64,000 nt of DNA, taken from assembly GCF_046105845.1 (NCBI RefSeq), contig NZ_CP151004.1. One strand, written 5' to 3'. This DNA is from Escherichia coli. Its GTDB lineage: Bacteria; Pseudomonadota; Gammaproteobacteria; Enterobacterales; Enterobacteriaceae. The notes beneath the pieces are model-generated. The model did not search any database and had not been told where the DNA came from. It saw only the letters and a list, made by a program, of their open reading frames with translations. Each line of letters starts with the position of its first letter. The stretch's first letter is position 1. Positions 4,010-51,420 of this stretch are shown here, one piece after another. Made by a program: the position numbers and the translations under genes.

Positions 4010-7000
4010 ATGAATAGAATCTATCGCGTGATATGGAATTGCACCCTACAGGTATTTCAGGCCTGCTCGGAATTAACTCGCAGGGTAGGTAAAACATCAA
4101 CGGTTAATTTGCGTAAATCCTCTGGACTGACAACGAAATTCAGTAGATTGACGCTGGGTGTTTTGCTGGCACTAAGCGGTTCAGCGTCTGGTGCGAGTCT
4201 GGAAGTTGATAATGATCAGATTATCAATATTGATACTGATGTTGCTTATGATGCCTACCTGGTTGGGTGGTATGGCACTGGAGTGCTTAATATTTTGGCT
4301 GGCGGTAATGCCTCCTTAACCACTATTACTACCAGCGTCATTGGTGGTAATGAGAACTCGAAGGGCACCGTTAATGTTTTGGGTGGCACCTGGCGATTGT
4401 ATGATAGCGGAAATAATGCAAGGCCTTTAAATGTGGGCCAATCCGGAACGGGGATGCTGAATATTAAACAGAAGGGGCACGTTGACGGAGGCTATTTAAG
4501 ATTAGGTACTCAAGCTGTAGGCGTCGGGATGGTTAATGTTGAGGGAGAGGACTCGGTTCTGACGACCGAATTATTCGAAATAGGGAGTTACGGTACAGGC
4601 TCATTAAATATTACGGATAAGGGTTACGTCACGAGTTCAATCGTCGCCATTGTAGGATATCAGGCGAACAGCACTGGTAAGGTTGTCGTTGAAAAGGGTG
4701 GCGAGTGGCTAATAAAAAATAATGATTCCTCAATTGAATTTCAAATTGGTAATCAAGGAACTGGGGAGGCGACTATTCGCGAGGGTGGACTGATTACGGC
4801 TGAAAATACGATTATCGGTGGCAATGCCACCGGTATCGGAACCCTGAATGTGCAGGATCAAGACTCTGTCATCACGGTACGCAGAGTCTATAATGGATAT
4901 TTCGGTAATGGCACAGTCAATATTTCCAATAATGGACTGATTAATAATAAAGAATATTCATTGGTGGGCGTTCAGGACGGGTCCCACGGTGTCGTCAACG
5001 TGACCAATAAAGGGCATTGGAATTTCCTCGGAACGGGCGAAGCTTTCCGCTATATCTATATCGGTGATGCTGGCGACGGTGAACTTAATGTCTCTAGTGA
5101 AGGCAAAGTAGATTCGGGAATTATCACTGCGGGGATGAAAGAAACAGGCACAGGCAACATTACTATTAAGGATAAGAACTCCATTATCACTAATCTCGGA
5201 ACTAATCTTGGTTATGACGGCCACGGCGAAATGAATATCAGTAATGAGGGGCTTGTTATCAGCAACGGAGGAAGCTCACTCGGTTATGGAGAAACCGGCG
5301 TCGGGAAGGTTAGCATCACCACGGGGGGGATGTGGGAGGTCAATAAGAATGTCTATACCACCATTGGTGTTGCGGGCGTCGGAAACCTCAATATCAGCGA
5401 TGGCGGTAAGTTCGTATCGCAAAATATTACTTTTTTGGGCGATAAAGCAAGCGGTATCGGCACACTGAACCTGATGGATGCGACATCATCGTTCGATACT
5501 GTAGGTATCAATGTCGGTAATTTTGGTAGCGGCATCGTAAATGTCAGTAATGGTGCCACCCTTAATTCAACGGGCTATGGATTTATCGGAGGAAATGCCT
5601 CCGGTAAGGGGATAGTTAATATTTCAACGGATAGTCTCTGGAATTTAAAAACGTCATCTACTAACGCCCAATTGTTACAGGTCGGTGTATTAGGCACGGG
5701 TGAACTGAATATTAGCACCGGAGGTATAGTTAAAGCGCGTGATACACAAATAGCTCTCAATGACAAAAGTAAGGGCGACGTGCGGGTGGATGGGCAGAAC
5801 TCTCTTCTTGAAACATTCAATATGAACGTAGGGACGACTGGCACAGGTACGTTAACCCTGACGAATAACGGTACGCTGAATGTCGAAGGTGGAGAAGTTT
5901 ACTTAGGTGTTTTTGCGCCTGCTGTAGGAACGCTAAACATTGGTGCTGCTCACGGTGAGGCGGCGGCAGATGCCGGATTTATCACCAATGCGACGAAAGT
6001 GGAGTTTGGTCTTGGCGAAGGCGTTTTTGTCTTTAATCATACCAATAACAGTGATGCCGGCTACCAGGTCGATATGCTGATTACGGGTGACGATAAAGAC
6101 GGAAAAGTGATGCATGATGCAGGCCATACGGTGTTCAATGCAGGGAATACTTATAGCGGTAAAACGTTGGTCAATGGCGGCCTCCTGACCATTGCGTCAC
6201 ATACGGCAGATGGGGTAACGGGCATGGGTTCGAGTGAAGTAACCATTGCAAACCCCGGTACGCTCGACATTCTCGCATCAACGAACAGTGCAGGAGATTA
6301 CACGCTGACCAATGCGCTCAAAGGCGATGGCTTGATGCGAGTGCAGCTGTCATCCTCCGACAAAATGTTTGGCTTTACCCATGCAACAGGAACTGAATTC
6401 GCCGGTGTTGCCCAACTGAAAGACAGTACCTTCACACTGGAACGCGACAACACCGCTGCGCTTACTCACGCGATGCTTCAGTCTGACAGTGAAAATACCA
6501 CATCGGTAAAAGTGGGAGAGCAATCCATTGGTGGACTAGCCATGAATGGCGGTACGCTCACTTTCGATACGGATATACCTGCTGCGACGCTCGCGGAGGG
6601 ATATATCAGCGTCGATACGCTGGTTGTCGGCGCGGGTGACTACACCTGGAAAGGCCGTAACTATCAGGTAAACGGGACGGGCGACGTGCTTATCGACGTG
6701 CCTAAACCGTGGAATGATCCCATGGCGAATAACCCTCTGACGACGCTCAATTTGCTGGAACACGATGATAGTCATGTCGGCGTTCAACTGGTGAAGGCGC
6801 AAACGGTTATTGGGTCGGGTGGCTCATTAACGTTACGTGATTTACAGGGCGACGAGGTGGAAGCGGACAAAACGTTACATATTGCACAAAACGGGACAGT
6901 GGTCGCCGAGGGTGATTATGGATTCCGCCTCACGACCGCTCCTGGTGATGGTTTGTATGTTAACTATGGGCTGAAAGCGCTGAACATCCATGGTGGGCAA

Positions 7001-9430
7001 AAGCTGACGTTAGCCGAACATGGCGGAGCCTATGGCGCAACGGCCGATATGTCGGCAAAAATCGGTGGTGAAGGGGATCTGGCAATCAATACGGTGCGAC
7101 AGGTTTCGCTTTCTAACGGTCAGAACGACTATCAGGGGGCAACCTACGTTCAGATGGGGACATTACGTACCGATGCGGATGGCGCTCTGGGCAATACTCG
7201 GGAACTGAACATCAGCAACGCGGCCATCGTCGATCTTAATGGATCGGAGCAGACGGTAGAGACATTCACCGGGCTGATGGGTTCGACTATTTTGTTCAAA
7301 GAAGGTTCGCTGACGGTGAATAAAGGTGGGATCAGTCAGGGCGAACTGACAGGTGGCGGAAACCTGAATGTTACAGGGGGAACACTGGCTATCGAGGGGC
7401 TTAATGCACGCTACAATGCGTTAACCAGCATTAGCCCAAATGCGGAAGTCAGCCTCGACAATACGCAGGGGTTAGGCAGAGGAAATATTGCCAATGACGG
7501 TCTGTTAACGCTAAAAAACGTGACCGGCAAACTGCGCAATAGCATAAGCGGTAAAGGTATCGTGAGCGCAACCGCCAGCACAGACGTAGAGCTGGATGGC
7601 GATAATAGCCGCTTTGTGGGGCAATTCAACATCGATGCAGGCAGCGCGCTCAGCGTCAACGAGCAGAAAAACCTGGGTGATGCTTCCGTTATCAATAATG
7701 GCCTGCTCACCATCGCCACTGAGCGTAGCTGGGCGATGACGCACAGTATCACCGGTAGCGGCGATGTGACAAAACTGGGGACCGGGATCCTGACTCTTAA
7801 CAACGATTCCGCGGCGTATCAGGGTACGACGGATATCGTGGGTGGTGAAATTGCTTTCGGTTCCGACTCTGCCATTAATATGGCAAGTCAGCACATTAAT
7901 ATCCATAACAGCGGTGTGATGTCGGGAAATGTCACCACTGCAGGTGATGTGAACGTTATGCCAGGGGGGACACTGCGTGTCGCTAAAACCACTGTCGGCG
8001 GTAACCTGGAGAATGGTGGCACGGTTCAAATGAACAGCGAAGGGGGGAAACCGGGGAATGTACTGACCGTTAACGGCAACTATACCGGAAACAATGGCCT
8101 GATGACGTTCAACGCGACGCTGGGTGGCGATAATTCGCCCACGGATAAAATGAACGTGAAAGGCGATACCCAAGGGAATACTCGCGTTCGGGTTGATAAC
8201 ATTGGCGGCGTCGGTGCACAAACGGTCAACGGTATTGAACTCATTGAGGTTGGCGGTAATTCTGCAGGTAAATTCGCGCTGACCACCGGAACTGTCGAAG
8301 CTGGGGCTTACGTCTACACGCTGGCTAAAGGGAAGGGGAATGACGAGAAAAACTGGTATCTGACCAGTAAATGGGACGGCGTAACGCCAGCGGATACACC
8401 CGATCCCATCAATAATCCCCCTGTTGTGGATCCGGAAGGCCCATCAGTTTATCGCCCGGAGGCCGGAAGCTATATCAGCAACATTGCCGCAGCCAACTCG
8501 CTGTTTAGCCATCGCTTACACGACCGTCTGGGTGAGCCGCAGTATACAGATTCACTGCATTCTCAGGGTTCGGCAAGCAGTATGTGGATGCGTCATGTCG
8601 GGGGGCACGAACGTTTCAGGACCGGTGACGGCCAGCTAAATATTCAGGCTAACCGCTATGTATTGCAGCTAGGAGGCGATTTGGCGCAGTGGAGTAGCAA
8701 CGCGCAGGATCGCTGGCATCTCGGCATCATGGCAGGCTATGCCAATCAGCACAGTAATACTCAGAGTAATCATGTGGGTTATAAATCGGATGGGCGCATC
8801 AGCGGTTACAGCGCAGGACTGTACGCGACCTGGTATCAGAACGATGCGAATAAGACCGGCGCTTATGTTGACAGCTGGGCGCTGTATAACTGGTTTGATA
8901 ACAGCGTCAGTTCCGATAACCGTTCTGCTGACGACTATGATTCTCGCGGTGTGACGGCCTCTGTTGAGGGGGGGTATACCTTTGAAGCGGGAACATTTAG
9001 CGGCAGCGAAGGGACGCTGAATACCTGGTACGTCCAGCCACAGGTACAAATCACCTGGATGGGTGTGAAAGATTCTGACCATACCCGGAAAGACGGAACA
9101 CGCATTGAAACGGAAGGCGACGGAAACGTGCAAACGCGACTTGGGGTGAAAACCTACCTGAACAGCCATCACCAGCGTGACGATGGTAAACAGCGTGAGT
9201 TCCAGCCTTACATTGAAGCGAACTGGATCAACAACAGCAAAGTCTACGCCGTGAAGATGAATGGTCAAACCGTAAGCCGTGATGGTGCGCGTAATCTCGG
9301 TGAAGTACGTACCGGGGTTGAGGCGAAAGTAAATAACAACCTTAGCCTGTGGGGGAATGTCGGTGTGCAACTAGGTGATAAAGGCTATAGCGATACTCAG
9401 GGCATGCTGGGAGTGAAATATATCTGGTAA
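4010..9430 (+). CDS. ydeK: Large type Va autotransporter adhesin (full length, 1806 aa) with extended signal peptide region, repetitive beta-helix passenger and C-terminal beta-barrel
   Basis: Start at MNRIYRVIWNCTLQVF (ESPR-like) with GGAG RBS 7 nt upstream; many GTGxLNI/GNASG passenger repeats; C-terminus ends ...LGVKYIW (aromatic terminal residue). Locus position between lsrK and hipB matches ydeK/yneO, which I recall as a pseudogene in K-12. Confidence 0.85.
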   Translation: MNRIYRVIWNCTLQVFQACSELTRRVGKTSTVNLRKSSGLTTKFSRLTLGVLLALSGSASGASLEVDNDQIINIDTDVAYDAYLVGWYGTGVLNILAGGNASLTTITTSVIGGNENSKGTVNVLGGTWRLYDSGNNARPLNVGQSGTGMLNIKQKGHVDGGYLRLGTQAVGVGMVNVEGEDSVLTTELFEIGSYGTGSLNITDKGYVTSSIVAIVGYQANSTGKVVVEKGGEWLIKNNDSSIEFQIGNQGTGEATIREGGLITAENTIIGGNATGIGTLNVQDQDSVITVRRVYNGYFGNGTVNISNNGLINNKEYSLVGVQDGSHGVVNVTNKGHWNFLGTGEAFRYIYIGDAGDGELNVSSEGKVDSGIITAGMKETGTGNITIKDKNSIITNLGTNLGYDGHGEMNISNEGLVISNGGSSLGYGETGVGKVSITTGGMWEVNKNVYTTIGVAGVGNLNISDGGKFVSQNITFLGDKASGIGTLNLMDATSSFDTVGINVGNFGSGIVNVSNGATLNSTGYGFIGGNASGKGIVNISTDSLWNLKTSSTNAQLLQVGVLGTGELNISTGGIVKARDTQIALNDKSKGDVRVDGQNSLLETFNMNVGTTGTGTLTLTNNGTLNVEGGEVYLGVFAPAVGTLNIGAAHGEAAADAGFITNATKVEFGLGEGVFVFNHTNNSDAGYQVDMLITGDDKDGKVMHDAGHTVFNAGNTYSGKTLVNGGLLTIASHTADGVTGMGSSEVTIANPGTLDILASTNSAGDYTLTNALKGDGLMRVQLSSSDKMFGFTHATGTEFAGVAQLKDSTFTLERDNTAALTHAMLQSDSENTTSVKVGEQSIGGLAMNGGTLTFDTDIPAATLAEGYISVDTLVVGAGDYTWKGRNYQVNGTGDVLIDVPKPWNDPMANNPLTTLNLLEHDDSHVGVQLVKAQTVIGSGGSLTLRDLQGDEVEADKTLHIAQNGTVVAEGDYGFRLTTAPGDGLYVNYGLKALNIHGGQKLTLAEHGGAYGATADMSAKIGGEGDLAINTVRQVSLSNGQNDYQGATYVQMGTLRTDADGALGNTRELNISNAAIVDLNGSEQTVETFTGLMGSTILFKEGSLTVNKGGISQGELTGGGNLNVTGGTLAIEGLNARYNALTSISPNAEVSLDNTQGLGRGNIANDGLLTLKNVTGKLRNSISGKGIVSATASTDVELDGDNSRFVGQFNIDAGSALSVNEQKNLGDASVINNGLLTIATERSWAMTHSITGSGDVTKLGTGILTLNNDSAAYQGTTDIVGGEIAFGSDSAINMASQHINIHNSGVMSGNVTTAGDVNVMPGGTLRVAKTTVGGNLENGGTVQMNSEGGKPGNVLTVNGNYTGNNGLMTFNATLGGDNSPTDKMNVKGDTQGNTRVRVDNIGGVGAQTVNGIELIEVGGNSAGKFALTTGTVEAGAYVYTLAKGKGNDEKNWYLTSKWDGVTPADTPDPINNPPVVDPEGPSVYRPEAGSYISNIAAANSLFSHRLHDRLGEPQYTDSLHSQGSASSMWMRHVGGHERFRTGDGQLNIQANRYVLQLGGDLAQWSSNAQDRWHLGIMAGYANQHSNTQSNHVGYKSDGRISGYSAGLYATWYQNDANKTGAYVDSWALYNWFDNSVSSDNRSADDYDSRGVTASVEGGYTFEAGTFSGSEGTLNTWYVQPQVQITWMGVKDSDHTRKDGTRIETEGDGNVQTRLGVKTYLNSHHQRDDGKQREFQPYIEANWINNSKVYAVKMNGQTVSRDGARNLGEVRTGVEAKVNNNLSLWGNVGVQLGDKGYSDTQGMLGVKYIW

Positions 9431-9437
9431 ACCTTAT

Positions 9438-9472
9438 AAGCCGCATGTCGAAGATGGCATGCGGCTTAATAT
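9438..9472 (+). terminator. Terminator-like hairpin after autotransporter gene
   Basis: AAGCCGCATG-loop-CATGCGGCTT inverted repeat directly after stop; weak U tract. Confidence 0.45.
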
Positions 9473-9506
9473 TGCCGACTTCAAACGACTTTTAAATCCT
9501 CCTTTT

Positions 9507-9620
9507 TATCCGCGATCGCGGATATCACAGCGTTTATCCCGTAGAGCGGATAAAATGTGTTTCCTGATTGACTTTATCCCCACTAAAGGATAAAACTGAT
9601 AATATCCCCTTGAGCGGATA
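9507..9620 (+). promoter_or_regulatory. hipBA promoter with four HipB operator sites TATCC-N8-GGATA
   Basis: Four exact TATCC-N8-GGATA palindromes at 9507-9524, 9535-9552, 9575-9592, 9603-9620, immediately upstream of hipB. Confidence 0.9.
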
Positions 9621-9641
9621 AATATGCTGTGGACGTATGAC

Positions 9642-9908
9642 ATGATGAGCTTTCAGAAGATCTATAGCCCAACGCAATTAGCGAATGCAATGAAACTGGT
9701 TCGTCAGCAAAATGGCTGGACGCAGAGCGAGCTGGCGAAAAAAATCGGTATTAAGCAGGCGACAATTTCCAATTTCGAAAACAACCCTGACAATACCACG
9801 CTCACGACATTTTTTAAGATTTTACAGTCGCTTGAACTCTCAATGACGCTATGCGACACGAAAAATGCCTCGCCAGAATCAACAGAACAGCAAGATCTGG
9901 AGTGGTAA
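9642..9908 (+). CDS. hipB: HipB antitoxin (Xre-family HTH)
   Basis: 88-aa product MMSFQKIYSPTQLANAMKLVRQQNGWTQSELAKKIGIKQATISNFENNPDNTTL...; matches K-12 HipB; stop overlaps hipA start (TAATG). Confidence 0.95.
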   Translation: MMSFQKIYSPTQLANAMKLVRQQNGWTQSELAKKIGIKQATISNFENNPDNTTLTTFFKILQSLELSMTLCDTKNASPESTEQQDLEW

Positions 9909-11230
9909 TGCCTAAACTTGTCACTTGGATGAACAACCAGCGGGTAGGCGAGTTAACGAAGTTAGCCAATGGCGCGCACACCTTTAAGTATGCACCGGAG
10001 TGGTTAGCTAACCGTTATGCCAGACCGTTGTCACTTTCGCTGCCATTGCAGAGGGGGAATATCACCTCTGATGCCGTATTTAACTTCTTCGATAACCTGT
10101 TACCCGATAGCCCGATTGTACGTGACCGGATCGTTAAACGTTATCATGCCAAATCCAGACAACCGTTTGATTTATTGTCAGAAATAGGGCGAGACAGCGT
10201 TGGTGCCGTGACGTTAATACCCGAAGACGAAACCGTAACGCATCCGATAATGGCATGGGAAAAGCTTACTGAAGCCAGACTTGAAGAAGTATTAACGGCT
10301 TATAAAGCAGATATCCCTCTGGGCATGATTAGAGAAGAAAATGACTTTCGCATCTCGGTTGCTGGCGCGCAGGAGAAGACAGCGCTGCTCAGAATAGGCA
10401 ATGACTGGTGCATTCCGAAAGGAATAACGCCGACGACGCACATCATTAAATTACCGATTGGCGAAATCAGGCAGCCCAATGCGACGCTCGATCTCAGCCA
10501 AAGCGTTGATAATGAGTATTACTGTCTGCTGCTGGCGAAAGAACTTGGGTTGAATGTTCCGGACGCAGAAATCATTAAAGCGGGAAGGGTGCGCGCGTTA
10601 GCGGTCGAACGTTTTGACAGGCGTTGGAATGCTGAGCGAACGGTTTTACTTCGCTTGCCACAGGAGGATATGTGTCAGACATTCGGTTTACCTTTATCGG
10701 TGAAATATGAATCAGATGGAGGCCCAGGCATCGCGCGGATCATGGCTTTTTTGATGGGGTCCAGCGAGGCGCTGAAAGATCGCTATGATTTTATGAAGTT
10801 TCAGGTGTTCCAGTGGTTGATTGGCGCAACGGATGGCCATGCAAAAAACTTCTCCGTATTTATTCAGGCTGGCGGCAGTTATCGACTCACGCCATTTTAC
10901 GACATCATTTCAGCATTTCCGGTATTGGGTGGCGCAGGAATACACATCAGCGATCTCAAACTGGCAATGGGGCTTAACGCATCCAAAGGCAAAAAAACGG
11001 CAATCGATAAAATTTATCCGCGACATTTTCTGGCGACAGCAAAGGTGCTGAAATTTCCGGAAGTGCAGATGCATGAAATCCTGAGTGACTTTGCCAGAAT
11101 GATTCCGGCAGCACTGGATAACGTGAAGACTTCATTACCGACAGATTTTCCGGAGAACGTGGTGACGGCAGTTGAAACAAATGTGTTGAGGTTGCACCGT
11201 CGGTTAAGCCGAGAATACGGTATTAAGTAA
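9908..11230 (+). CDS. hipA: HipA serine/threonine kinase toxin
   Basis: 440-aa product MPKLVTWMNNQRVGELTKLANGAHTFKYAPEWL...; matches K-12 HipA. Residue 22 is Gly (not the hipA7 G22S allele). Confidence 0.95.
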   Translation: MPKLVTWMNNQRVGELTKLANGAHTFKYAPEWLANRYARPLSLSLPLQRGNITSDAVFNFFDNLLPDSPIVRDRIVKRYHAKSRQPFDLLSEIGRDSVGAVTLIPEDETVTHPIMAWEKLTEARLEEVLTAYKADIPLGMIREENDFRISVAGAQEKTALLRIGNDWCIPKGITPTTHIIKLPIGEIRQPNATLDLSQSVDNEYYCLLLAKELGLNVPDAEIIKAGRVRALAVERFDRRWNAERTVLLRLPQEDMCQTFGLPLSVKYESDGGPGIARIMAFLMGSSEALKDRYDFMKFQVFQWLIGATDGHAKNFSVFIQAGGSYRLTPFYDIISAFPVLGGAGIHISDLKLAMGLNASKGKKTAIDKIYPRHFLATAKVLKFPEVQMHEILSDFARMIPAALDNVKTSLPTDFPENVVTAVETNVLRLHRRLSREYGIK

Positions 11231-11510
11231 GATATGGGGTTTGGCTGTTGTTAATGAGCAGGACAATCATGACCGCCAACGACTGGATTCTCCCTTGGTT
11301 TATGTTGGTGCGCATAATGTATATTATGTTAAATTGAATTTGAGTGATACGAAGCGATTTTCCGGTCGTCGTTATTACTTCAGGGTTCCAGAACATAAAG
11401 CCTCTCCTCTTTCATAATTGGCCTGTGCATACCGGATATAGGCTGGCTGGTATGCAGGTTTGCCGTTTGCCGCATCTTCCCTGCGTTGAAGAGTCAGGCT
11501 GGCAAACCGC

Positions 11511-11765
11511 GTGCAAATGAACACCCCCTCTTTCCATCAACACTTCAGACAGCTTGCGGGAATGAGTCCACTCCGGTATCAGAAATGGCTACGCCTCAAT
11601 GAAGCCAGGCGACTGATGCTGAATGAACATTACGATGTCACCACTGCAGCCTATGCTGTCGGTTACGAAAGCTTATCCCATTTCAGTCGGGAATATTCGC
11701 GGATGTTTGGAGAGTCACCTAAGAGAGATATTACCGGGTTAAGAAAGTCTGTCGGTCAGCTTTAA
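11511..11765 (+). pseudogene. yneL: AraC-family regulator C-terminal HTH fragment (remnant)
   Basis: 84-aa ORF containing only an AraC-type HTH tail (…LRYQKWLRLNEARRLMLNEHYDVTTAAYAVGYESLSHFSREYSRMFGESP…); no N-terminal domain; position matches K-12 yneL pseudogene. Confidence 0.7.
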
Positions 11766-12199
11766 TAAACCCTGCACTTATCTGTTTAGAGCAATTCCGT
11801 GTTAGTTACACCAGTCAAACATTAACCATAGCTAATGTTTTATAGCCATATAAACCATTGGCCGCTCTTGACCTTTCCTGACACTTCCCTTGTTCGCAAT
11901 AATATTCTGTTTAGTCGCTGTTTATAAATAACATGCATAATGAAATCGTAATGTTATTTAGCGACATAAAATGTCTTTGCAAATACTCTCTACAACAAGT
12001 GCTGCAATAAACTTGTTGTGATTAGGTGTCCTTGTAATTTAAAGATATTATCGTTCTTCGTGAAATGTAATAACCCTGGAAACTATATTCTCAGGGCAAT
12101 ATCCCATCAAGAATGATTCTTGTTTTATAAGCAATAACAGAATTACTTAATTGTTAACTTTCTTTATTCAGCTACTTAAATATAAATTTTGGAGAATTA

Positions 12200-42058: not shown

Positions 42059-42255
42059 CAAATTCCTCTCGCCCGCACTCGCGGGTTTTCCTTTAAAGTG
42101 ACACTGTCACTTAAATACTGTGATTTCAGCTACGATTCCGGGAGATTCCTTCCTTAACTTCCCCTCTTGCACCAAAACTGCACTACGCTGCACAAATGTT
42201 GATCAAAAGTTAAAAAATATAACTTTAAGCCAGCATTCTGGCGCTTATCCCGGCA

Positions 42256-42271
42256 TGGCATGAGATCTGCA
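42256..42271 (+). promoter_or_regulatory. Sigma54-type -24/-12 promoter element TGGCAT-N5-CTGCA upstream of ddpX
   Basis: GG and GC dinucleotides with correct spacing (consensus TGGCAC-N5-TTGCA), 45 bp upstream of ddpX ATG; ddp operon is known to be nitrogen (NtrC) regulated. Confidence 0.6.
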
Positions 42272-42315
42272 TAAGCGGAAAGCGCAGCAATTTTTGTCTT
42301 ATACAGGAACCGTTT

Positions 42316-42897
42316 ATGTCGGATACCACCGAACTGGTTGATTTAGCCGTGATCTTCCCTGATCTGGAGATCGAATTGAAATACGCCTGCGCTGATAACA
42401 TCACAGGTAAAGCTATTTATCAGCAAGCGCGTTGTCTGTTACACAAGGATGCGATTACCGCGCTGGCGAAAAGTATCAGTATCGCCCAGCTGTCAGGCTT
42501 ACAACTGGTGATTTACGATGCGTATCGCCCACAACAAGCACAGGCGATGTTGTGGCAAACCTGCCCAGACCCGCAATATGTTGTTGATGTGGCGGTCGGT
42601 TCTAATCACAGCCGTGGCACGGCGATCGACCTGACGCTTCGTGATGAGCACGGGAACATCCTGGATATGGGTGCAGAGTTCGATGAAATGCACGAACGTT
42701 CCCATGCTTATCACCCTTCCGTCCCGCCCGCTGCTCAGCGCAATCGGCTGTTGCTGAATGCGATTATGACTGGCGGTGGCTTTGTCGGTATCCCGAGCGA
42801 ATGGTGGCACTTCGAATTACCCCTGGCAGCGAGTTACCCACTACTCGCTGATCAATTCACCTGTTTTATATCCCCTGGCACACAGCACGCCAGTTAA
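42316..42897 (+). CDS. ddpX: D-Ala-D-Ala dipeptidase (VanX-like)
   Basis: 193-aa ORF MSDTTELVDLAVIFPDLEIELKYACADNITG…; matches K-12 DdpX. Confidence 0.95.
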   Translation: MSDTTELVDLAVIFPDLEIELKYACADNITGKAIYQQARCLLHKDAITALAKSISIAQLSGLQLVIYDAYRPQQAQAMLWQTCPDPQYVVDVAVGSNHSRGTAIDLTLRDEHGNILDMGAEFDEMHERSHAYHPSVPPAAQRNRLLLNAIMTGGGFVGIPSEWWHFELPLAASYPLLADQFTCFISPGTQHAS

Positions 42898-42910
42898 TCA
42901 GGAAACTGTC

Positions 42911-44461
42911 ATGAAGAGATCGATATCGTTTCGTCCTACATTGCTCGCGATCGTCCTTGCCACAACAATGCCGGTTGCGCACGCCGCCGTACCGAAAGAT
43001 ATGCTGGTGATCGGTAAAGCTGCCGACCCACAAACCCTCGACCCAGCGGTGACAATTGATAATAACGACTGGACAGTGACCTACCCGTCTTATCAGCGAC
43101 TGGTTCAGTACAAAACGGACGGTGATAAAGGCTCAACCGACGTTGAAGGCGATCTGGCGAGTAGCTGGAAAGCGTCTGACGATCAAAAAGAGTGGACGTT
43201 CACCCTGAAGGACAATGCTAAATTTGCCGATGGCACACCTGTCACTGCCGAAGCAGTAAAACTCTCTTTTGAGCGGTTACTAAAAATCGGCCAGGGGCCA
43301 GCAGAAGCATTTCCCAAAGATTTAAAGATTGATGCTCCCGACGAACATACGGTGAAGTTTACCCTTAGCCAACCATTCGCACCGTTCCTCTACACGCTGG
43401 CGAATGACGGTGCATCCATTATCAATCCGGCGGTCTTAAAGGAACATGCAGCGGATGATGCCCGTGGTTTCCTCGCGCAAAATACCGCTGGCTCCGGACC
43501 GTTTATGCTGAAAAGCTGGCAAAAAGGTCAGCAATTAGTTCTGGTGCCAAATCCGCATTACCCCGGTAATAAACCGAATTTCAAACGGGTATCGGTAAAA
43601 ATTATCGGTGAAAGTGCTTCCCGTCGCCTGCAGCTCTCCCGTGGCGACATTGACATTGCCGATGCGCTGCCGGTGGATCAACTCAACGCACTGAAGCAGG
43701 AAAACAAAGTCAATGTGGCAGAGTATCCGTCACTGCGCGTCACCTATCTGTATCTGAATAACAGCAAAGCGCCACTTAATCAGGCGGATCTGCGTCGGGC
43801 CATTTCCTGGTCTACCGATTATCAGGGTATGGTTAACGGCATTCTGAGTGGTAACGGAAAACAAATGCGCGGCCCGATTCCGGAAGGCATGTGGGGATAC
43901 GATGCGACGGCAATGCAATACAACCATGACGAAACGAAAGCCAAAGCCGAATGGGATAAAGTGACGAGCAAACCCACCAGCCTGACGTTTCTCTATTCTG
44001 ATAATGATCCGAACTGGGAGCCTATTGCTCTGGCGACACAATCCAGTCTCAACAAGCTGGGCATCAATGTGAAGCTGGAAAAGCTGGCGAACGCCACCAT
44101 GCGCGACAGAGTGGGTAAAGGTGATTACGACATTGCGATTGGCAACTGGAGCCCGGATTTTGCCGACCCGTATATGTTTATGAATTACTGGTTTGAGTCA
44201 GACAAAAAAGGTCTGCCGGGTAACCGCTCGTTCTATGAAAACAGTGAGGTCGATAAGCTACTGCGCAATGCGCTAGCGACCACCGACCAGACGCAGCGTA
44301 CCCGGGACTACCAGCAGGCACAGAAAATCGTCATTGATGACGCTGCTTATGTGTACCTGTTCCAGAAAAACTACCAACTGGCGATGAACAAAGAGGTGAA
44401 AGGTTTTGTGTTCAATCCCATGCTGGAACAGGTCTTCAATATCAATACCATGAGTAAATAA
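42911..44461 (+). CDS. ddpA: Dipeptide ABC transporter periplasmic binding protein
   Basis: 516-aa product with signal peptide MKRSISFRPTLLAIVLATTMPVAHA; SBP family 5. Confidence 0.9.
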   Translation: MKRSISFRPTLLAIVLATTMPVAHAAVPKDMLVIGKAADPQTLDPAVTIDNNDWTVTYPSYQRLVQYKTDGDKGSTDVEGDLASSWKASDDQKEWTFTLKDNAKFADGTPVTAEAVKLSFERLLKIGQGPAEAFPKDLKIDAPDEHTVKFTLSQPFAPFLYTLANDGASIINPAVLKEHAADDARGFLAQNTAGSGPFMLKSWQKGQQLVLVPNPHYPGNKPNFKRVSVKIIGESASRRLQLSRGDIDIADALPVDQLNALKQENKVNVAEYPSLRVTYLYLNNSKAPLNQADLRRAISWSTDYQGMVNGILSGNGKQMRGPIPEGMWGYDATAMQYNHDETKAKAEWDKVTSKPTSLTFLYSDNDPNWEPIALATQSSLNKLGINVKLEKLANATMRDRVGKGDYDIAIGNWSPDFADPYMFMNYWFESDKKGLPGNRSFYENSEVDKLLRNALATTDQTQRTRDYQQAQKIVIDDAAYVYLFQKNYQLAMNKEVKGFVFNPMLEQVFNINTMSK

Positions 44462-44462
44462 C

Positions 44463-45485
44463 GTGACCTTCTGGAGTATTTTACGCCAACGCTGCTGGGG
44501 GCTGGTGCTCGTGGTGGCGGGCGTCTGTGTGATTACGTTTATTATCTCGCATCTTATCCCCGGCGATCCGGCGCGGTTACTGGCGGGTGACCGCGCCAGC
44601 GATGCTATCGTGGATAATATTCGCCAGCAACTGGGACTGGACCAGCCACTGTACGTACAGTTTTACCGCTACGTCAGCGACCTGTTTCAGGGTGACCTGG
44701 GAACATCCATTCGTACCGGGCGTCCGGTGCTGGAAGAGTTGCGCATATTTTTCCCGGCGACGCTGGAACTGGCTTTTTGTGCCCTGCTGCTGGCACTCCT
44801 GATTGGCATCCCGCTGGGCATACTCTCTGCAGTCTGGCGAAATCGCTGGCTGGATCATCTGGTGCGAATAATGGCCATTACCGGAATCTCCACACCTGCG
44901 TTCTGGCTTGGGCTGGGCGTCATTGTGCTGTTTTATGGTCATCTGCAAATTCTTCCCGGCGGCGGAAGGCTTGATGACTGGCTGGATCCACCAACGCACG
45001 TTACCGGCTTTTATCTGCTCGATGCGCTGCTTGAAGGCAACGGTGAAGTCTTCTTCAATGCGCTGCAACATCTCATCTTACCGGCATTAACGCTGGCGTT
45101 CGTTCACCTGGGAATTGTCGCTCGCCAGATCCGCTCAGCGATGCTGGAACAATTGAGTGAAGACTACATTCGTACCGCCCGGGCCAGCGGCTTGCCCGGC
45201 TGGTATATCGTTTTATGTTATGCGCTACCCAATGCGTTGATCCCCTCGATTACCGTATTGGGGCTGGCGCTGGGCGATTTGTTGTATGGCGCAGTGCTCA
45301 CCGAAACCGTTTTTGCCTGGCCCGGAATGGGGGCATGGGTAGTGACATCAATACAGGCGCTCGACTTCCCTGCGGTGATGGGATTTGCCGTCGTGGTTTC
45401 GTTTGCTTATGTGCTGGTGAACCTGGTGGTGGATTTGCTCTATTTGTGGATTGATCCGCGTATCGGACGTGGAGGTGGTGAATGA
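44463..45485 (+). CDS. ddpB: Dipeptide ABC transporter permease
   Basis: 340-aa, GTG start, DppB-like permease. Confidence 0.9.
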   Translation: MTFWSILRQRCWGLVLVVAGVCVITFIISHLIPGDPARLLAGDRASDAIVDNIRQQLGLDQPLYVQFYRYVSDLFQGDLGTSIRTGRPVLEELRIFFPATLELAFCALLLALLIGIPLGILSAVWRNRWLDHLVRIMAITGISTPAFWLGLGVIVLFYGHLQILPGGGRLDDWLDPPTHVTGFYLLDALLEGNGEVFFNALQHLILPALTLAFVHLGIVARQIRSAMLEQLSEDYIRTARASGLPGWYIVLCYALPNALIPSITVLGLALGDLLYGAVLTETVFAWPGMGAWVVTSIQALDFPAVMGFAVVVSFAYVLVNLVVDLLYLWIDPRIGRGGGE

Positions 45486-46378
45486 TGCTAAGCGAGGAAA
45501 CGTCAGCCGTGCGCCCACCAAAACAAACGCGATTTAACGGTGCAAAACTGGTATGGATGCTGAAAGGCAGCCCGCTTACCGTGACCGGCGCAGTCATCAT
45601 TGTATTAATGCTACTGATGATGATTTTTTCACCGTGGCTGGCGACGCATGATCCCAACGCCATTGATTTAACCGCCCGCCTTTTGCCGCCTTCTGCGGCG
45701 CACTGGTTTGGCACCGATGAAGTGGGACGCGATCTGTTTAGCCGCGTACTGGTCGGCAGTCAGCAATCAATTCTCGCCGGATTAGTGGTAGTCGCCATTG
45801 CAGGTATGATGGGGTCGCTACTCGGGTGTCTATCCGGTGTGCTTGGCGGACGCGCAGACGCGATTATCATGCGCATCATGGACATTATGCTGTCGATTCC
45901 TTCGCTGGTGCTGACAATGGCACTGGCAGCCGCTCTCGGTCCGAGTTTGTTTAACGCCATGCTGGCGATTGCTATTGTGCGAATTCCCTTTTATGTGCGC
46001 CTGGCGCGGGGGCAAACATTAGTTGTTCGCCAGTACACTTACGTTCAGGCGGCGAAAACCTTTGGTGCGTCACGCTGGCATCTGATCAACTGGCATATTT
46101 TACGTAACTCCCTGCCGCCGCTGATTGTGCAGGCATCGCTGGATATCGGTAGCGCGATTTTAATGGCCGCCACGTTGGGATTTATTGGCCTGGGTGCTCA
46201 ACAACCGAGTGCTGAATGGGGGGCGATGGTGGCGAATGGTCGCAACTATGTGCTCGATCAATGGTGGTATTGCGCATTTCCGGGGGCAGCGATTTTGCTT
46301 ACCGCCGTCGGGTTTAATCTCTTTGGCGATGGTATTCGCGATCTGCTTGACCCGAAAGCAGGAGGAAAGCAGTCATGA
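45482..46378 (+). CDS. ddpC: Dipeptide ABC transporter permease
   Basis: 298-aa DppC-like permease; ATGA overlap with ddpB stop. Confidence 0.9.
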   Translation: MMLSEETSAVRPPKQTRFNGAKLVWMLKGSPLTVTGAVIIVLMLLMMIFSPWLATHDPNAIDLTARLLPPSAAHWFGTDEVGRDLFSRVLVGSQQSILAGLVVVAIAGMMGSLLGCLSGVLGGRADAIIMRIMDIMLSIPSLVLTMALAAALGPSLFNAMLAIAIVRIPFYVRLARGQTLVVRQYTYVQAAKTFGASRWHLINWHILRNSLPPLIVQASLDIGSAILMAATLGFIGLGAQQPSAEWGAMVANGRNYVLDQWWYCAFPGAAILLTAVGFNLFGDGIRDLLDPKAGGKQS

Positions 46379-47361
46379 CCCAACCCGTTCTGGACATTCA
46401 ACAGCTGCATTTGAGTTTCCCCGGTTTTAACGGCGACGTTCACGCGCTCAACAATGTGTCATTGAAAATCAACCGCGGTGAAATTGTCGGTCTGGTGGGA
46501 GAATCCGGCTCGGGTAAATCAGTCACTGCAATGTTGATTATGCGTCTGCTACCGACGGGCAGTTATTGCGTACATCGGGGGCAGATTTCACTGCTGGGAG
46601 AAGATGCTCTTAACGCTCGGGAAAAGCAGCTTCGTCAGTGGCGCGGCGCACGAGTGGCGATGATCTTTCAGGAACCGATGACCGCCCTTAATCCGACACG
46701 TCGAATAGGTCTTCAGATGATGGACGTGATCCGCCATCATCAGCCAATAAGTCGTCGGGAAGCCAGAGCTAAAGCGATTGCCCTGCTGGAAGAGATGCAA
46801 ATCCCGGATGCCGTGGAAGTTATGTCGCGCTATCCGTTTGAGCTTTCAGGTGGTATGCGCCAGCGGGTAATGATTGCGCTGGCATTCTCCTGCGAGCCGC
46901 AATTGATTATTGCCGACGAACCGACTACGGCGCTGGACGTCACGGTACAGTTGCAGGTACTGCGTCTGCTTAAACATAAAGCCCGCGCCAGTGGAACTGC
47001 GGTACTGTTCATCAGCCATGATATGGCCGTGGTGTCGCAACTGTGCGATAGCGTTTACGTGATGTATGCCGGAAGCGTGATTGAGAGCGGCGTGACGGCA
47101 GACGTTATCCATCATCCCCGGCATCCGTATACCATTGGTTTGCTGCAATGCGCACCGGAACATGGAATACCGCGCCAGCCATTACCCGCCATTCCAGGGA
47201 CGGTACCAAACCTCACCCATTTGCCTGACGGCTGCGCTTTTCGCGATCGTTGCTATGCGGCAGGTGCACAGTGTGAAAACGTCCCGGCGCTGACAGCGTG
47301 TGGTGACAACAACCACCGCTGCGCCTGTTGGTATCCTCAGCAGGAGGTCATTAGTGTCTGA
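46375..47361 (+). CDS. ddpD: Dipeptide ABC transporter ATP-binding protein
   Basis: 328-aa, Walker A GESGSGKS, signature LSGGMRQR. Confidence 0.9.
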   Translation: MTQPVLDIQQLHLSFPGFNGDVHALNNVSLKINRGEIVGLVGESGSGKSVTAMLIMRLLPTGSYCVHRGQISLLGEDALNAREKQLRQWRGARVAMIFQEPMTALNPTRRIGLQMMDVIRHHQPISRREARAKAIALLEEMQIPDAVEVMSRYPFELSGGMRQRVMIALAFSCEPQLIIADEPTTALDVTVQLQVLRLLKHKARASGTAVLFISHDMAVVSQLCDSVYVMYAGSVIESGVTADVIHHPRHPYTIGLLQCAPEHGIPRQPLPAIPGTVPNLTHLPDGCAFRDRCYAAGAQCENVPALTACGDNNHRCACWYPQQEVISV

Positions 47362-48280
47362 CACGTTATTAACGTTACGCGACGTCCATATCAATTTCCC
47401 TGCCCGAAAAAACTGGCTTGGTAAAACTACGGAACATGTTCATGCCATCAATGGTATTGATTTACAGATCCGTCGTGGTGAAACCTTAGGGATCGTCGGT
47501 GAGTCAGGCTGCGGCAAAAGCACCCTCGCACAGCTTTTAATGGGTATGCTGCAACCGAGCCACGGGCAGTACATCCGTTCAGGATCACAACGCATTATGC
47601 AGATGGTGTTTCAGGACCCGCTCTCTTCGCTTAATCCGCGCTTACCGGTGTGGCGCATCATCACGGAACCGCTCTGGATTGCTAAGCGTAGTAGTGAACA
47701 ACAGCGGCGAGCGTTGGCAGAGGAGCTGGCTGTGCAGGTGGGTATTCGTCCGGAGTATCTCGACCGCTTGCCTCATGCGTTCTCAGGCGGGCAGCGGCAA
47801 CGTATCGCCATTGCCAGAGCACTCTCTTCGCAGCCTGACGTGATTGTGCTTGATGAACCAACCTCGGCGCTGGATATCTCCGTGCAGGCGCAGATCCTCA
47901 ATTTACTGGTAACGCTACAGGAAAATCGCGAGCTGACTTATGTGCTGATTTCACACAATGTCTCGGTGATACGTCATATGAGCGATCGGGTGGCGGTGAT
48001 GTATCTCGGACAGATTGTGGAACTAGGAGACGCGCAACAGGTGCTGACAGCTCCGGCACATCCATACACCCGATTATTGCTGGATTCCCTCCCCGCCATT
48101 GATAAACCGCTGGAGGAAGAATGGGCATTACGTAAAACGGATCTGCCGGGAAACCGCACGTTGCCACAAGGCTGTTTTTTCCGCGAACGCTGCCCTCTGG
48201 CAACCCACGGATGTGAAGTCCGGCAATCATTAACAATAAGGGAGGACGGACGTGAGATCCGGTGCTGGCGGGCGCTGTAG
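47354..48280 (+). CDS. ddpF: Dipeptide ABC transporter ATP-binding protein
   Basis: 308-aa from GTG 47354 (VSDTLLTLRDVHINF…), Walker A GESGCGKST, signature FSGGQRQR; 8-bp overlap with ddpD. Confidence 0.85.
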   Translation: MSDTLLTLRDVHINFPARKNWLGKTTEHVHAINGIDLQIRRGETLGIVGESGCGKSTLAQLLMGMLQPSHGQYIRSGSQRIMQMVFQDPLSSLNPRLPVWRIITEPLWIAKRSSEQQRRALAEELAVQVGIRPEYLDRLPHAFSGGQRQRIAIARALSSQPDVIVLDEPTSALDISVQAQILNLLVTLQENRELTYVLISHNVSVIRHMSDRVAVMYLGQIVELGDAQQVLTAPAHPYTRLLLDSLPAIDKPLEEEWALRKTDLPGNRTLPQGCFFRERCPLATHGCEVRQSLTIREDGREIRCWRAL

Positions 48281-48282
48281 AG

Positions 48283-48335
48283 ACGCTAACAACGCATCAG
48301 GCAATCACGCGCCTGACGCGTCATCCGGCAACGCT
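48283..48335. repeat. REP-like palindromic element between convergent ddpF and osmC
   Basis: …CGCATCAGGCAATCACGCGCCTGACGCGTCATCCGGCA… imperfect GC-rich palindromes resembling REP units. Confidence 0.4.
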
Positions 48336-48767
48336 TTATGATTTCAACTGGTAATCAAGCGTAATTTCAGCTTTCAGTACCTGAGAAACCGGGCATCCTG
48401 CTTTTGCTTTCTGGATAATGCCGTCAAAGGTGGCTGCATCAATACCCGGCACCGCAACTTCGCTCTTCAGTGCGATTTTAGTAATCGCAAAACCGGCATC
48501 CACTTTATCCAGCGACACATCGGCGGTGGTATCAATCGATGTTGGCGTGAATCCCGCTTCCCCCAGCATTAATGAAAGCGCCATTGAGAAACATGCGGCA
48601 TGCGCTGCGCCAATCAGTTCTTCAGGGTTGGTTCCTTTTTCGCCTTCAAAACGCGTGTTAAATCCATACGGCTGTTGGTTCAGCACGCCGCTCTCGGTGG
48701 ATACTGTTCCCTTCCCGCGTTTGATATCGCCTTCCCAGTGTGCCTGACCTTTCTTATGGATTGTCAT
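48336..48767 (-). CDS. osmC: Osmotically inducible peroxiredoxin OsmC
   Basis: 143-aa minus-strand ORF MTIHKKGQAHWEGDIKRGKGTVSTESG…; matches K-12 OsmC. Confidence 0.95.
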   Translation of the reverse strand: MTIHKKGQAHWEGDIKRGKGTVSTESGVLNQQPYGFNTRFEGEKGTNPEELIGAAHAACFSMALSLMLGEAGFTPTSIDTTADVSLDKVDAGFAITKIALKSEVAVPGIDAATFDGIIQKAKAGCPVSQVLKAEITLDYQLKS

Positions 48768-49111
48768 TGTTGCTCTCCTGTGGGTTTAAAAAGGAAATTA
48801 TAGACTACGTGAGAAACAGCACGAGGATAAGCAGGATATTCCGAATGAAATCCGGCGAAAACATTATTTCTGTACTTAAATTAAATTCCCACAATAGATA
48901 ACGGGGAATATATAATCCAAAAGATATTGTATCAATATTAATCGGATCACCCCAATTACAATCCCTATGAATATCATGGTGTTAAAATATAAAAATTATC
49001 AACCAGGACTAATCTTAACAACGAAGCGGCAAATATTTGCCATGCTGAATGTGCTTTATAAATCTGCGATCCGTAGCAGACACCATAAATACACAGACAC
49101 GGAGAATCACT

Positions 49112-49327
49112 ATGTTTACTTATTATCAGGCAGAAAATTCAACAGCAGAACCCGCTCTGGTTAATGCCATTGAGCAAGGCCTTCGGGCAGAGCACGGTGT
49201 TGTCACTGAAGATGACATTCTCATGGAGCTGACCAAATGGGTGGAAGCTTCTGATAACGACATCCTCAGTGATATCTACCAGCAAACGATCAATTATGTG
49301 GTCAGTGGCCAGCACCCTACGCTTTAA
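49112..49327 (+). CDS. bdm: Biofilm-dependent modulation protein Bdm
   Basis: 71-aa product MFTYYQAENSTAEPALVNAIEQGLRAEHGVV…; GGAGA RBS upstream. Confidence 0.9.
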   Translation: MFTYYQAENSTAEPALVNAIEQGLRAEHGVVTEDDILMELTKWVEASDNDILSDIYQQTINYVVSGQHPTL

Positions 49328-49428
49328 GGTGCTATGCTTGATCGGCAACCTAATTTAGGGGTTTAGCACGTGTTTCTTCGCTACGGCGATGTTGTCCTTA
49401 AAACTAGCAACAGGATTGAGGAGTTAAA

Positions 49429-49566
49429 ATGAAATCGAACCGTCAGGCACGTCATATTCTTGGACTGGACCATAAAATTTCTAACCAGCGCAAAATAGTT
49501 ACCGAAGGTGACAAATCCAGCGTGGTAAATAACCCAACCGGCAGAAAACGCCCCGCTGAAAAGTAA
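49429..49566 (+). CDS. sra: Stationary-phase ribosome-associated protein Sra (S22)
   Basis: 45-aa product [52 protein letters not shown] upstream; below the ORF-track length cut-off. Confidence 0.85.
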
Positions 49567-49597
49567 TTCATAACCATCAGTCCTCAATGACGATTAA

Positions 49598-49630
49598 ACA
49601 CCATTGCCTGCGCAATGGTGTTTTTGTTTT
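49598..49630 (+). terminator. Rho-independent terminator after sra
   Basis: ACACCATTGC-CTGC-GCAATGGTGT followed by TTTTTGTTTTT. Confidence 0.85.
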
Positions 49631-49722
49631 TATCTGCTTTATACTTGGGGCCGACGCCCTGGCGGTAAAGCAAAGACGATAAAAGCGTGCCAGGGATGGA
49701 TATTCAAAAAAGAGTGAGTGAC

Positions 49723-51420
49723 ATGGAACCAAAAACAAAAAAACAGCGTTCGCTTTATATCCCTTACGCTGGCCCTGTACTGCTGGAATTTCCGTTGTTG
49801 AATAAAGGCAGCGCCTTCAGCATGGAAGAACGCCGTAACTTCAACCTGCTGGGGTTACTGCCGGAAGTGGTCGAAACCATCGAAGAGCAAGCGGAACGAG
49901 CATGGATCCAGTATCAGGGATTCAAAACCGAAATCGACAAACACATCTACCTGCGTAACATCCAGGACACTAACGAAACCCTCTTCTACCGTCTGGTAAA
50001 CAATCATCTTGATGAGATGATGCCTGTTATTTATACCCCAACCGTCGGCGCAGCCTGTGAGCGTTTTTCTGAGATCTACCGCCGTTCACGCGGCGTGTTT
50101 ATCTCTTACCAGAACCGCCACAATATGGACGATATTCTGCAAAACGTGCCGAACCATAATATTAAAGTGATTGTGGTGACTGACGGTGAACGTATTCTGG
50201 GGCTTGGTGACCAGGGCATCGGCGGGATGGGCATTCCGATCGGTAAACTGTCACTCTATACCGCCTGTGGCGGCATCAGCCCGGCGTATACCCTTCCGGT
50301 GGTGCTGGATGTCGGGACGAACAACCAACAGCTGCTTAACGATCCGCTGTATATGGGCTGGCGTAATCCGCGTATCACTGACGACGAATACTATGAATTC
50401 GTTGATGAATTTATCCAGGCTGTGAAACAACGCTGGCCGGACGTGCTGTTGCAGTTTGAAGACTTCGCACAAAAAAATGCGATGCCGTTACTTAACCGCT
50501 ATCGCAATGAAATTTGTTCCTTTAACGATGACATTCAGGGCACTGCGGCGGTAACAGTCGGCACCCTGATCGCAGCCAGCCGCGCGGCAGGTGGTCAGTT
50601 AAGCGAGAAAAAAATCGTCTTCCTTGGCGCAGGTTCAGCGGGATGCGGCATTGCCGAAATGATCATCGCCCAGACCCAGCGCGAAGGATTAAGCGAGGAA
50701 GCGGCGCGGCAGAAAGTCTTTATGGTCGATCGCTTTGGCCTGCTGACCGACAAGATGCCGAACCTGCTGCCTTTCCAGACCAAACTGGTGCAGAAGCGCG
50801 AAAACCTCAGTGACTGGGATACCAACAGCGATGTGCTGTCACTGCTGGATGTGGTGCGCAATGTAAAACCAGATATTCTGATTGGCGTCTCAGGACAGAC
50901 CGGGCTGTTTACGGAAGAGATCATCCGTGAGATGCATAAACACTGTCCGCGTCCGATCGTGATGCCGCTGTCTAACCCGACTTCACGCGTGGAAGCCACA
51001 CCGCAGGACATTATCGCCTGGACTGAAGGTAACGCGCTGGTCGCCACTGGCAGTCCGTTTAACCCAGTGGTATGGAAAGATAAAATCTACCCTATCGCCC
51101 AGTGTAACAACGCCTTTATTTTCCCGGGCATCGGGCTGGGCGTTATTGCTTCCGGTGCGTCACGTATCACCGATGAGATGCTGATGTCGGCAAGTGAAAC
51201 GCTTGCTCAGTATTCGCCGCTGGTGCTGAACGGCGAAGGTCTGGTACTACCGGAACTGAAAGATATTCAGAAAGTCTCCCGCGCAATTGCGTTTGCGGTT
51301 GGCAAAATGGCGCAGCAGCAAGGCGTGGCGGTGAAAACCTCCGCCGAAGCTCTGCAACAGGCCATTGATGATAATTTCTGGCAAGCCGAATACCGCGACT
51401 ACCGCCGTACCTCCATCTAA
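49723..51420 (+). CDS. maeA: NAD-dependent malic enzyme
   Basis: 565-aa from [29 protein letters not shown]…; an upstream in-frame ATG at 49687 is possible but gives a non-conserved extension. Confidence 0.95.

Follow-up and report, generated by a model that had tools for sequence, protein, structure and literature searches.

The genes ddpF (47300-48280, plus strand) and osmC (48336-48767, minus strand) run towards each other in Escherichia coli and are separated by a gap of 55 bp (48281-48335). All coordinates are those of the window, by which we mean the whole 64,000-nt stretch of E. coli DNA that was analysed, unless K-12 positions are given. osmC is an RpoS- and osmotically induced peroxiredoxin gene. 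The initial annotation of the gap described GC-rich imperfect palindromes that resemble REP units and that could act as a bidirectional transcript stabiliser or terminator. This raises the question of what the palindromic sequence is, whether it is a REP element at all, and for which of the two transcripts it matters.

The palindrome and its parts

The gap, whose plus-strand sequence is AGACGCTAACAACGCATCAGGCAATCACGCGCCTGACGCGTCATCCGGCAACGCT, has a G+C content of 60% (33 of 55 bases). A repeat search of the gap revealed two 11-nt inverted-repeat arms, ACGCATCAGGC at 48292-48302 and GCCTGACGCGT at 48311-48321, which are complementary at 10 of 11 positions (91%) and lie 8 nt apart. RNA folding of the 55-nt gap gave -27.6 kcal/mol with the osmC (minus) strand, where z was -3.7 and 1 of 200 shuffles did as well, and -18.7 kcal/mol with the ddpF (plus) strand, where z was -2.7 and 2 of 200 shuffles did as well. 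Since both strands fold better than their shuffles, the palindrome is real, at a level modestly beyond chance. The arms, the base composition and the folds of both strands together confirm the GC-rich imperfect palindrome that had first been described in the convergent gap. The plural used there is also fair, as there are two REP-like units; the strong hairpin is a single one and is formed between them. The features are as follows.

48277-48280, plus strand: GTAG that includes the ddpF stop codon TAG (48278-48280), a possible relic of the 5' GTAG of the REP consensus GTAGGCCTGATAAGACGCG...
48281-48303, plus strand: unit 1, a truncated z2-like REP AGACGCTAACAACGCATCAGGCA (nhmmer, model positions 13-37)
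48304-48310, plus strand: linker ATCACGC between the units, resembling the short linker of the K-12 acs-yjcH BIME
48311-48329, plus strand: unit 2, a shortened inverted REP GCCTGACGCGTCATCCGGC, which reads GCCGGATGACGCGTCAGGC on the osmC strand (alignment with Citrobacter)
48288-48325, minus strand: RNA hairpin of the osmC 3' UTR, with a stem of 16 bp, 5 being G.U pairs, and a loop of 6 nt (RNA fold)
48287-48289, minus strand: osmC mRNA 3' ends, transferred from K-12 (Term-seq, PMC7815308)

Unit 1 contains the exact half-site CGCATCAGGCA at 48293-48303 and lacks the 5' arm GCCTGATA. The GTAG at 48277-48280 adjoins AGACGC directly, which would fit a loss of the 8-nt 5' foot GCCTGATA. From the letters, it is possible that this GTAG derives from a REP; its TAG is given by the ddpF stop codon, and the preceding G would be expected by chance about 1 time in 4. 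Unit 2 (19 nt) is followed by AACG, not CTAC, and has no TTAT/GATAAG (bulge) segment, so that it looks like an inverted REP minus its inner arm. The 8-nt loop between the two arms (48303-48310) consists of A48303 and the linker. To the strong stem, unit 1 contributes its tail and unit 2 its head, and neither unit folds a REP hairpin of its own. Because the stem forms between the units, the strong palindrome is not a REP hairpin, and it is arranged as BIMEs are at their inner junction. The osmC hairpin of the window strain can be extended by an outer helix of 5 bp (48283-48287 with 48330-48334). Judged from its sequence, the gap appears to hold a decayed, BIME-like pair of REP fragments with a chimeric hairpin.

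A weak sigma-70-like match was also seen at 48313-48342 on the plus strand (CTGACG, 18 nt, TATGAT; 9/12), overlapping unit 2 and reaching into antisense osmC. This match is within chance, as the promoter scan found 3 where 1.9 were expected.

Kinship with REP elements

REPs of E. coli are imperfect palindromes of 30-40 nt with two stem mismatches and a GTAG 5' of the foot. They are divided into classes y, z1 and z2 and are present in about 600 copies, mostly paired as BIMEs (PMC3333891, PMC8266576). Because the 64-kb window has no intact REP for comparison, REPs were harvested from K-12. A profile was built from 23 distinct REPs (41 harvested) in four 50-kb K-12 stretches (200 kb), which were chosen for known BIMEs; the harvested consensus was GTAGGCCGGATAAGGCGTTTACGCCGCATCCGGC for class y and GTAGGCCTGATAAGACGCGTCAGCGTCGCATCAGGC for class z2. 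By this profile, the 200 kb of K-12 hold 58 intact REPs and the 64-kb window none.

The best profile match in the 64-kb window was in the gap itself (nhmmer; 48281-48303, plus strand, 11.5 bits, E 0.018), and the next best had an E value of 1.5. The gap match was aligned as AGACGCT--AACAACGCATCAGGCA to model positions 13-37 of 37. The K-12 allele of the gap scored 9.4 bits. Among the K-12 matches, 46 full-length REPs scored 22-45 bits (median 39.6), 12 near-full REPs scored 18-35 bits, and the remaining 12 scored at most 9.5 bits. The gap match barely exceeds this noise tier: it is a REP fragment, not a REP. With scores as marginal as these, the REP ancestry of unit 1 is partly based on context. 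The foot motifs GCC(G/T)GATG and CATC(C/A)GGC are common to the gap and to E. coli REPs and BIMEs, and the inner AGACGC...CGCATCAGGCA of unit 1 agrees with class z2. As in the acs-yjcH BIME, a short linker separates inverse units, and the gap lies between convergent genes. Local alignment with the acs-yjcH BIME junction paired CGCATCCGGCAATCA-ATGCCTGATGCG with CGCATCAGGCAATCACGCGCCTGACGCG at 25 identities in 28 columns (z 5.5, 0 of 500 dinucleotide shuffles equal).

Eighty loci encoding close OsmC relatives were retrieved. In Citrobacter, GCCGGATGCGAC..GCGTCTTATCCGGC stands 6-9 nt past the osmC stop codon. The REP downstream of osmC scored 25.7 bits in C. portucalensis (L027; model positions 1-36, CTAC present) and 24.0, 23.9 and 19.2 bits in three other Citrobacter loci (L016, L018 and L019, respectively; model positions 5-37 in each). 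The sequence GCCGGATG, 6-9 nt past the osmC stop, is invariant among the aligned Escherichia and Citrobacter sequences. This invariance, together with the Citrobacter REP scores of 19-26 bits, identifies unit 2 as an orthologue, now decayed, of a genuine REP.

An intact, functional REP or BIME would be bound and cleaved by RayT/TnpA-REP and would come with gyrase, IHF or Pol I binding. The gap resembles such an element in having three matches to GCCKGATGCGNCG within 40 bp, in carrying the exact half-site of unit 1, and in lying, as extragenic sequence, entirely within a convergent gap, which is a typical location for about 60% of REPs according to a recent preprint (bioRxiv 10.64898/2026.03.23.713779). 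REPs are extragenic and mostly occupy gaps of convergent or tandem genes. However, the profile match is confined to model positions 13-37, and its 11.5 bits (9.4 in K-12) compare with 18-45 bits for genuine copies. Without its 5' arm, unit 1 forms no REP hairpin and has no two-base bulge, and unit 2 lacks both CTAC and the TTAT/bulge segment; neither unit is a self-folding imperfect palindrome of 30-40 nt with a two-mismatch bulge. The GTAG stands without the foot GCCTGATA, and AACG occupies the place of the CTAC that follows an inverted copy. Both units lack their outer halves, so the gap is not a REP, linker and inverted REP in series. Unlike in a REP or BIME, the strong palindrome spans two units. 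TnpA-REP requires both GTAG and the stem mismatch for binding and cleavage (PMC3333891, PMC8266576); as the GTAG with foot and the stem bulge are missing, the gap is predicted not to be a substrate of TnpA-REP (RayT). The 58-nt gap segment was found by BLAST at one place per genome throughout the genome collection, and since BLAST at that database size shows long near-identical copies only, this excludes a high-identity repeat, not REP kinship. The profile test largely refutes the identity of the gap as an intact REP or BIME, and we consider that explanation highly improbable. The REP-likeness that was first proposed thus stands as to kinship, on the profile match, the BIME-junction similarity and the orthologous REP of Citrobacter, and fails as to completeness, in that neither unit is intact and the alignment with the REP consensus is partial.

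At permissive thresholds, Rfam gave no match in the gap (positions 47000-50000 searched), and scans of the window for half-sites and head motifs gave, beyond the gap, only scattered matches at chance level. RefSeq K-12 has no REP feature at the locus. The K-12 control stretch 5000-12000, in which a REP was presumably annotated in older versions of the record, is also without repeat features in RefSeq, so the absence of annotation at the locus is uninformative. In the available supplements of the preprint, osmC is present in the expression table only and not in the REP tables (bioRxiv 10.64898/2026.03.23.713779). A literature search for osmC with ddpF returned nothing relevant.

The 3' end of the osmC transcript

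Mapped 3' ends of osmC mRNA are available from K-12, which differs from the window strain at 3 of the 55 gap positions and has identical stem arms. The 'primary' 3' ends recorded by Term-seq are 1557105 and 1557103 on the plus strand of K-12 (Adams et al. 2021, PMC7815308, Supplementary file 1); to judge by file position, these entries seem to belong to the LB OD 2.0 and M63 sheets. Since the osmC stop codon ends at K-12 1557056, the two ends fall at nt 49 and 47 of the 3' UTR, and via the K-12 sequence they were mapped to 48287 and 48289 of the window. The 16-bp stem starts 10 nt past the osmC stop codon and its last paired base is nt 48, which makes the end of the osmC RNA flush with the stem. 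In K-12, therefore, the RNA is mapped to end at the 3' foot of the stem-loop. The 49-nt 3' UTR folds at -24.6 kcal/mol in the window (z -4.1, 0 of 200 shuffles) and at -24.5 kcal/mol in K-12 (z -3.4). The osmC-strand hairpin had z values of -3.7 to -4.2.

The gap could instead be a bidirectional intrinsic (Rho-independent) terminator common to ddpF and osmC, in which one hairpin stops RNA polymerase from either side, a class described between convergent E. coli genes (bioRxiv 10.1101/2022.10.23.513370). Like members of this class, the gap has a single palindrome in a very short space between convergent stop codons. A stable hairpin lies 10-11 nt past each of them, and the osmC 3' ends fall 3-5 nt past the Watson-Crick core, in the U-containing tail UGUUA. 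Unlike them, the GC stem of the gap is flanked by no A- or U-tract: as tails, the osmC strand has CUCUACAGCG and UGUUAGCGUCUCU and the ddpF strand has CAUCCGGCAACGC, none with a U-run. A terminator consensus scan found no terminator-like site in the gap either, and the two results together make efficient intrinsic termination unlikely.

The two strands also differ strongly in the stability of the hairpin. Where the stem of the osmC strand has G.U pairs, that of the ddpF strand has A.C mismatches, which explains the difference of 9 kcal/mol between them (-27.6 versus -18.7) and suggests that the osmC transcript is the one that matters. For ddpF, no 3' end is present in the K-12 Term-seq dataset (PMC7815308). 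The same study reports a Rho termination region at K-12 1557696 on the plus strand (Rho score 7.8, p 4.9e-11; PMC7815308, Supplementary file 2). This region corresponds to about position 47696 on the minus strand of the window, antisense in ddpF and about 590 nt past the hairpin. Its position and strength imply that osmC transcription runs about 600 nt into antisense ddpF, with substantial read-through of the hairpin. These results render a bidirectional intrinsic terminator unlikely. The stabiliser or terminator proposed in the initial annotation is supported as far as osmC is concerned, whose 3' ends lie at the hairpin foot; its bidirectional action is not supported, given the much weaker plus-strand hairpin, the lack of a U-tract on either strand and the lack of a ddpF 3' end in the Term-seq dataset.

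The best reading of the gap is that it is probably a REP-derived hairpin that defines and protects the 3' end of osmC mRNA. In the osmC transcript, unit 1 would pair through its tail with the unit 2 head, and the resulting 16-bp hairpin would set the mature 3' end. RNA polymerase would partly read past the hairpin, and Rho would halt it within antisense ddpF, several hundred nucleotides downstream. The osmC RNA would then be trimmed back to the hairpin by 3'-to-5' exonucleases, which the hairpin would block, and the message would be stabilised. Weak termination at the hairpin itself may contribute. What has been shown is the relationship of the sequence to REPs, the fold predicted for it, the 3' ends mapped in K-12 and the Rho region; trimming and stabilisation, like any effect on ddpF, are inferred.

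Transcripts that are terminated by Rho are, as a rule, processed by 3'-to-5' exonucleases (Adams et al., PMC7815308). As with the processed ends of such transcripts, the osmC 3' end has a stable stem-loop and a Rho region a few hundred nucleotides on; nothing essential differs between them, and osmC may be one more example. Blocking exonucleases is the classical role of REP hairpins, and the malE-malF REP, the case of Newbury et al. in 1987, is said to be a stabiliser of an mRNA 3' end. REP 3' stabilisers and partial terminators, namely the malE-malF type and REP325 in yjdMN, share with osmC a GC-rich hairpin without a U-tract, an mRNA end flush with it and, further downstream, Rho termination. 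In osmC, unlike these, two REP fragments combine into a chimeric hairpin, whose stabilising effect is presumed. Liang, Rudd and Deutscher reportedly found in 2015 that REPs at most 15 nt from a stop codon can reduce translation. As the osmC stem starts 10 nt after the stop codon, a reduction of translation is conceivable there too, by analogy. A recent genome-wide analysis reports no general gain in half-life for mRNAs that end in a REP, and puts forward a dual terminator/stabiliser model for REPs (bioRxiv 10.64898/2026.03.23.713779), to which the reading of read-through, Rho termination and trimming for osmC corresponds.

Rearrangements at the locus

Of 5426 complete E. coli genomes, 5409 match a 901-bp stretch around the gap, with osmC and ddpF annotated there, and the ddpF/osmC locus is single-copy and conserved in 5405. 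Four arrangements were seen.

About 3700 genomes: 55-bp gap as in the window
349 genomes: 17-bp tandem duplication GCTGTAGAGATGCTAAC at the ddpF stop codon
About 1350 genomes: no ddp operon, dosP facing osmC
About 230 genomes: match split in two places

The 17-bp duplication spans the ddpF stop codon (strain W60, L003 877-910; window 48273-48289). It lengthens the gap to 72 bp and leaves the hairpin core untouched. In the form without the ddp operon, about 6.15 kb from ddpX to ddpF (window 42136-48291) is absent by comparison with L002 2925-2999, and about 68 bp stands in its place, with another REP-like palindrome, GCCTGATGTGATTGTGCTGACGCATCAGGC. The junction sequence of this form is absent from the window. 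This form is homologous to the window from 48292 onwards, where the osmC stem core has its outer edge, and 14 bp of the hairpin is kept. Just after dosP, a sequence with the shape of a textbook intrinsic terminator, CGCCCGCACTCGCGGGTTTT, was seen at 42070-42090 on the plus strand; it is conserved in the ddp-less strain.

The split matches in roughly 230 genomes reflect an island, whose loci are L009 1-3522 and L010 3537-7041. In EC01 and BEC1-S17-ESBL-07, this island separates ddpF from osmC by about 7.5 kb (window 48287-48313). It encodes a LysR regulator, CoA-transferase A/B, a thiolase (acetyl-CoA acetyltransferase), a 3-hydroxyacyl-CoA dehydrogenase, a GntP permease and a 3-hydroxybutyrate dehydrogenase. 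REP-like sequences are found at both of its junctions: on the osmC side a perfect 11-bp palindrome, GCCGGATGACGCGTCATCCGGC (-17.9 kcal/mol, z -4.8), and on the ddpF side GTAGGACGCGGCATCCGGC. In Citrobacter, too, a 3-hydroxybutyrate dehydrogenase gene adjoins osmC, which suggests that the island arrangement may be the older one.

Three structural polymorphisms meet in the gap: the ddp operon, present or absent with a boundary at 48292, the insertion of the island (about 7.5 kb) at a place between 48286 and 48314, and the 17-bp duplication. The gap might on this account be a neutral recombination scar, made of REP leftovers at a rearrangement hotspot, with a palindrome that no selection maintains and next to which the osmC 3' end falls by accident. 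Against this, a strong hairpin lies at most 10 nt from the osmC stop codon in every arrangement, with 3' arms that differ, and the boundary of the ddp indel falls exactly at the edge of the stem core, not inside it. The asymmetry of G.U pairs versus A.C mismatches also favours the RNA of the osmC strand. In genera beyond Escherichia and Citrobacter, the sequence after osmC is unrelated and a GC-rich hairpin is almost always present at the same position. Among 84 regions downstream of osmC in Enterobacterales, the first 60 nt folded with a median z of -3.0, and 68% were below -2. Folds are kept where the sequences are unrelated, so what is conserved downstream of osmC is hairpin structure rather than sequence. 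Within E. coli, the stem arms are invariant among the window, K-12 and the ddp-less haplotype, and variation is too low to reveal compensatory changes. A neutral scar is very unlikely.

A more far-reaching proposal goes beyond the protective hairpin. It holds that the osmC hairpin is under selection and has been rebuilt from differing REP fragments at each rearrangement, REP fragments having mediated the gain and loss of ddp and of the 3-hydroxybutyrate island; we regard this as tentative. In the same proposal, the hairpin would have two forms, a self-palindrome in the island strains and in Citrobacter and, in most E. coli, a chimeric stem made of a ddpF-side tail and an osmC-side head, a division that is likewise possible rather than probable.

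The gap element between ddpF and osmC is an ordinary, largely already documented feature of a well-studied locus, and it has little significance beyond annotation. Its chimeric make-up and its position at a rearrangement junction are mildly interesting, and only these. For annotation, osmC gains a defined 49-nt 3' UTR, and the ddpF/osmC gap is flagged as the junction of several strain-level rearrangements. The gap is an instance of a degenerate, chimeric REP remnant that fails a REP search yet marks, and probably protects, the 3' end of an mRNA. If the tentative proposal of repeated rebuilding were true, REP debris at a recombination hotspot would have been co-opted again and again as a working RNA 3'-end element.
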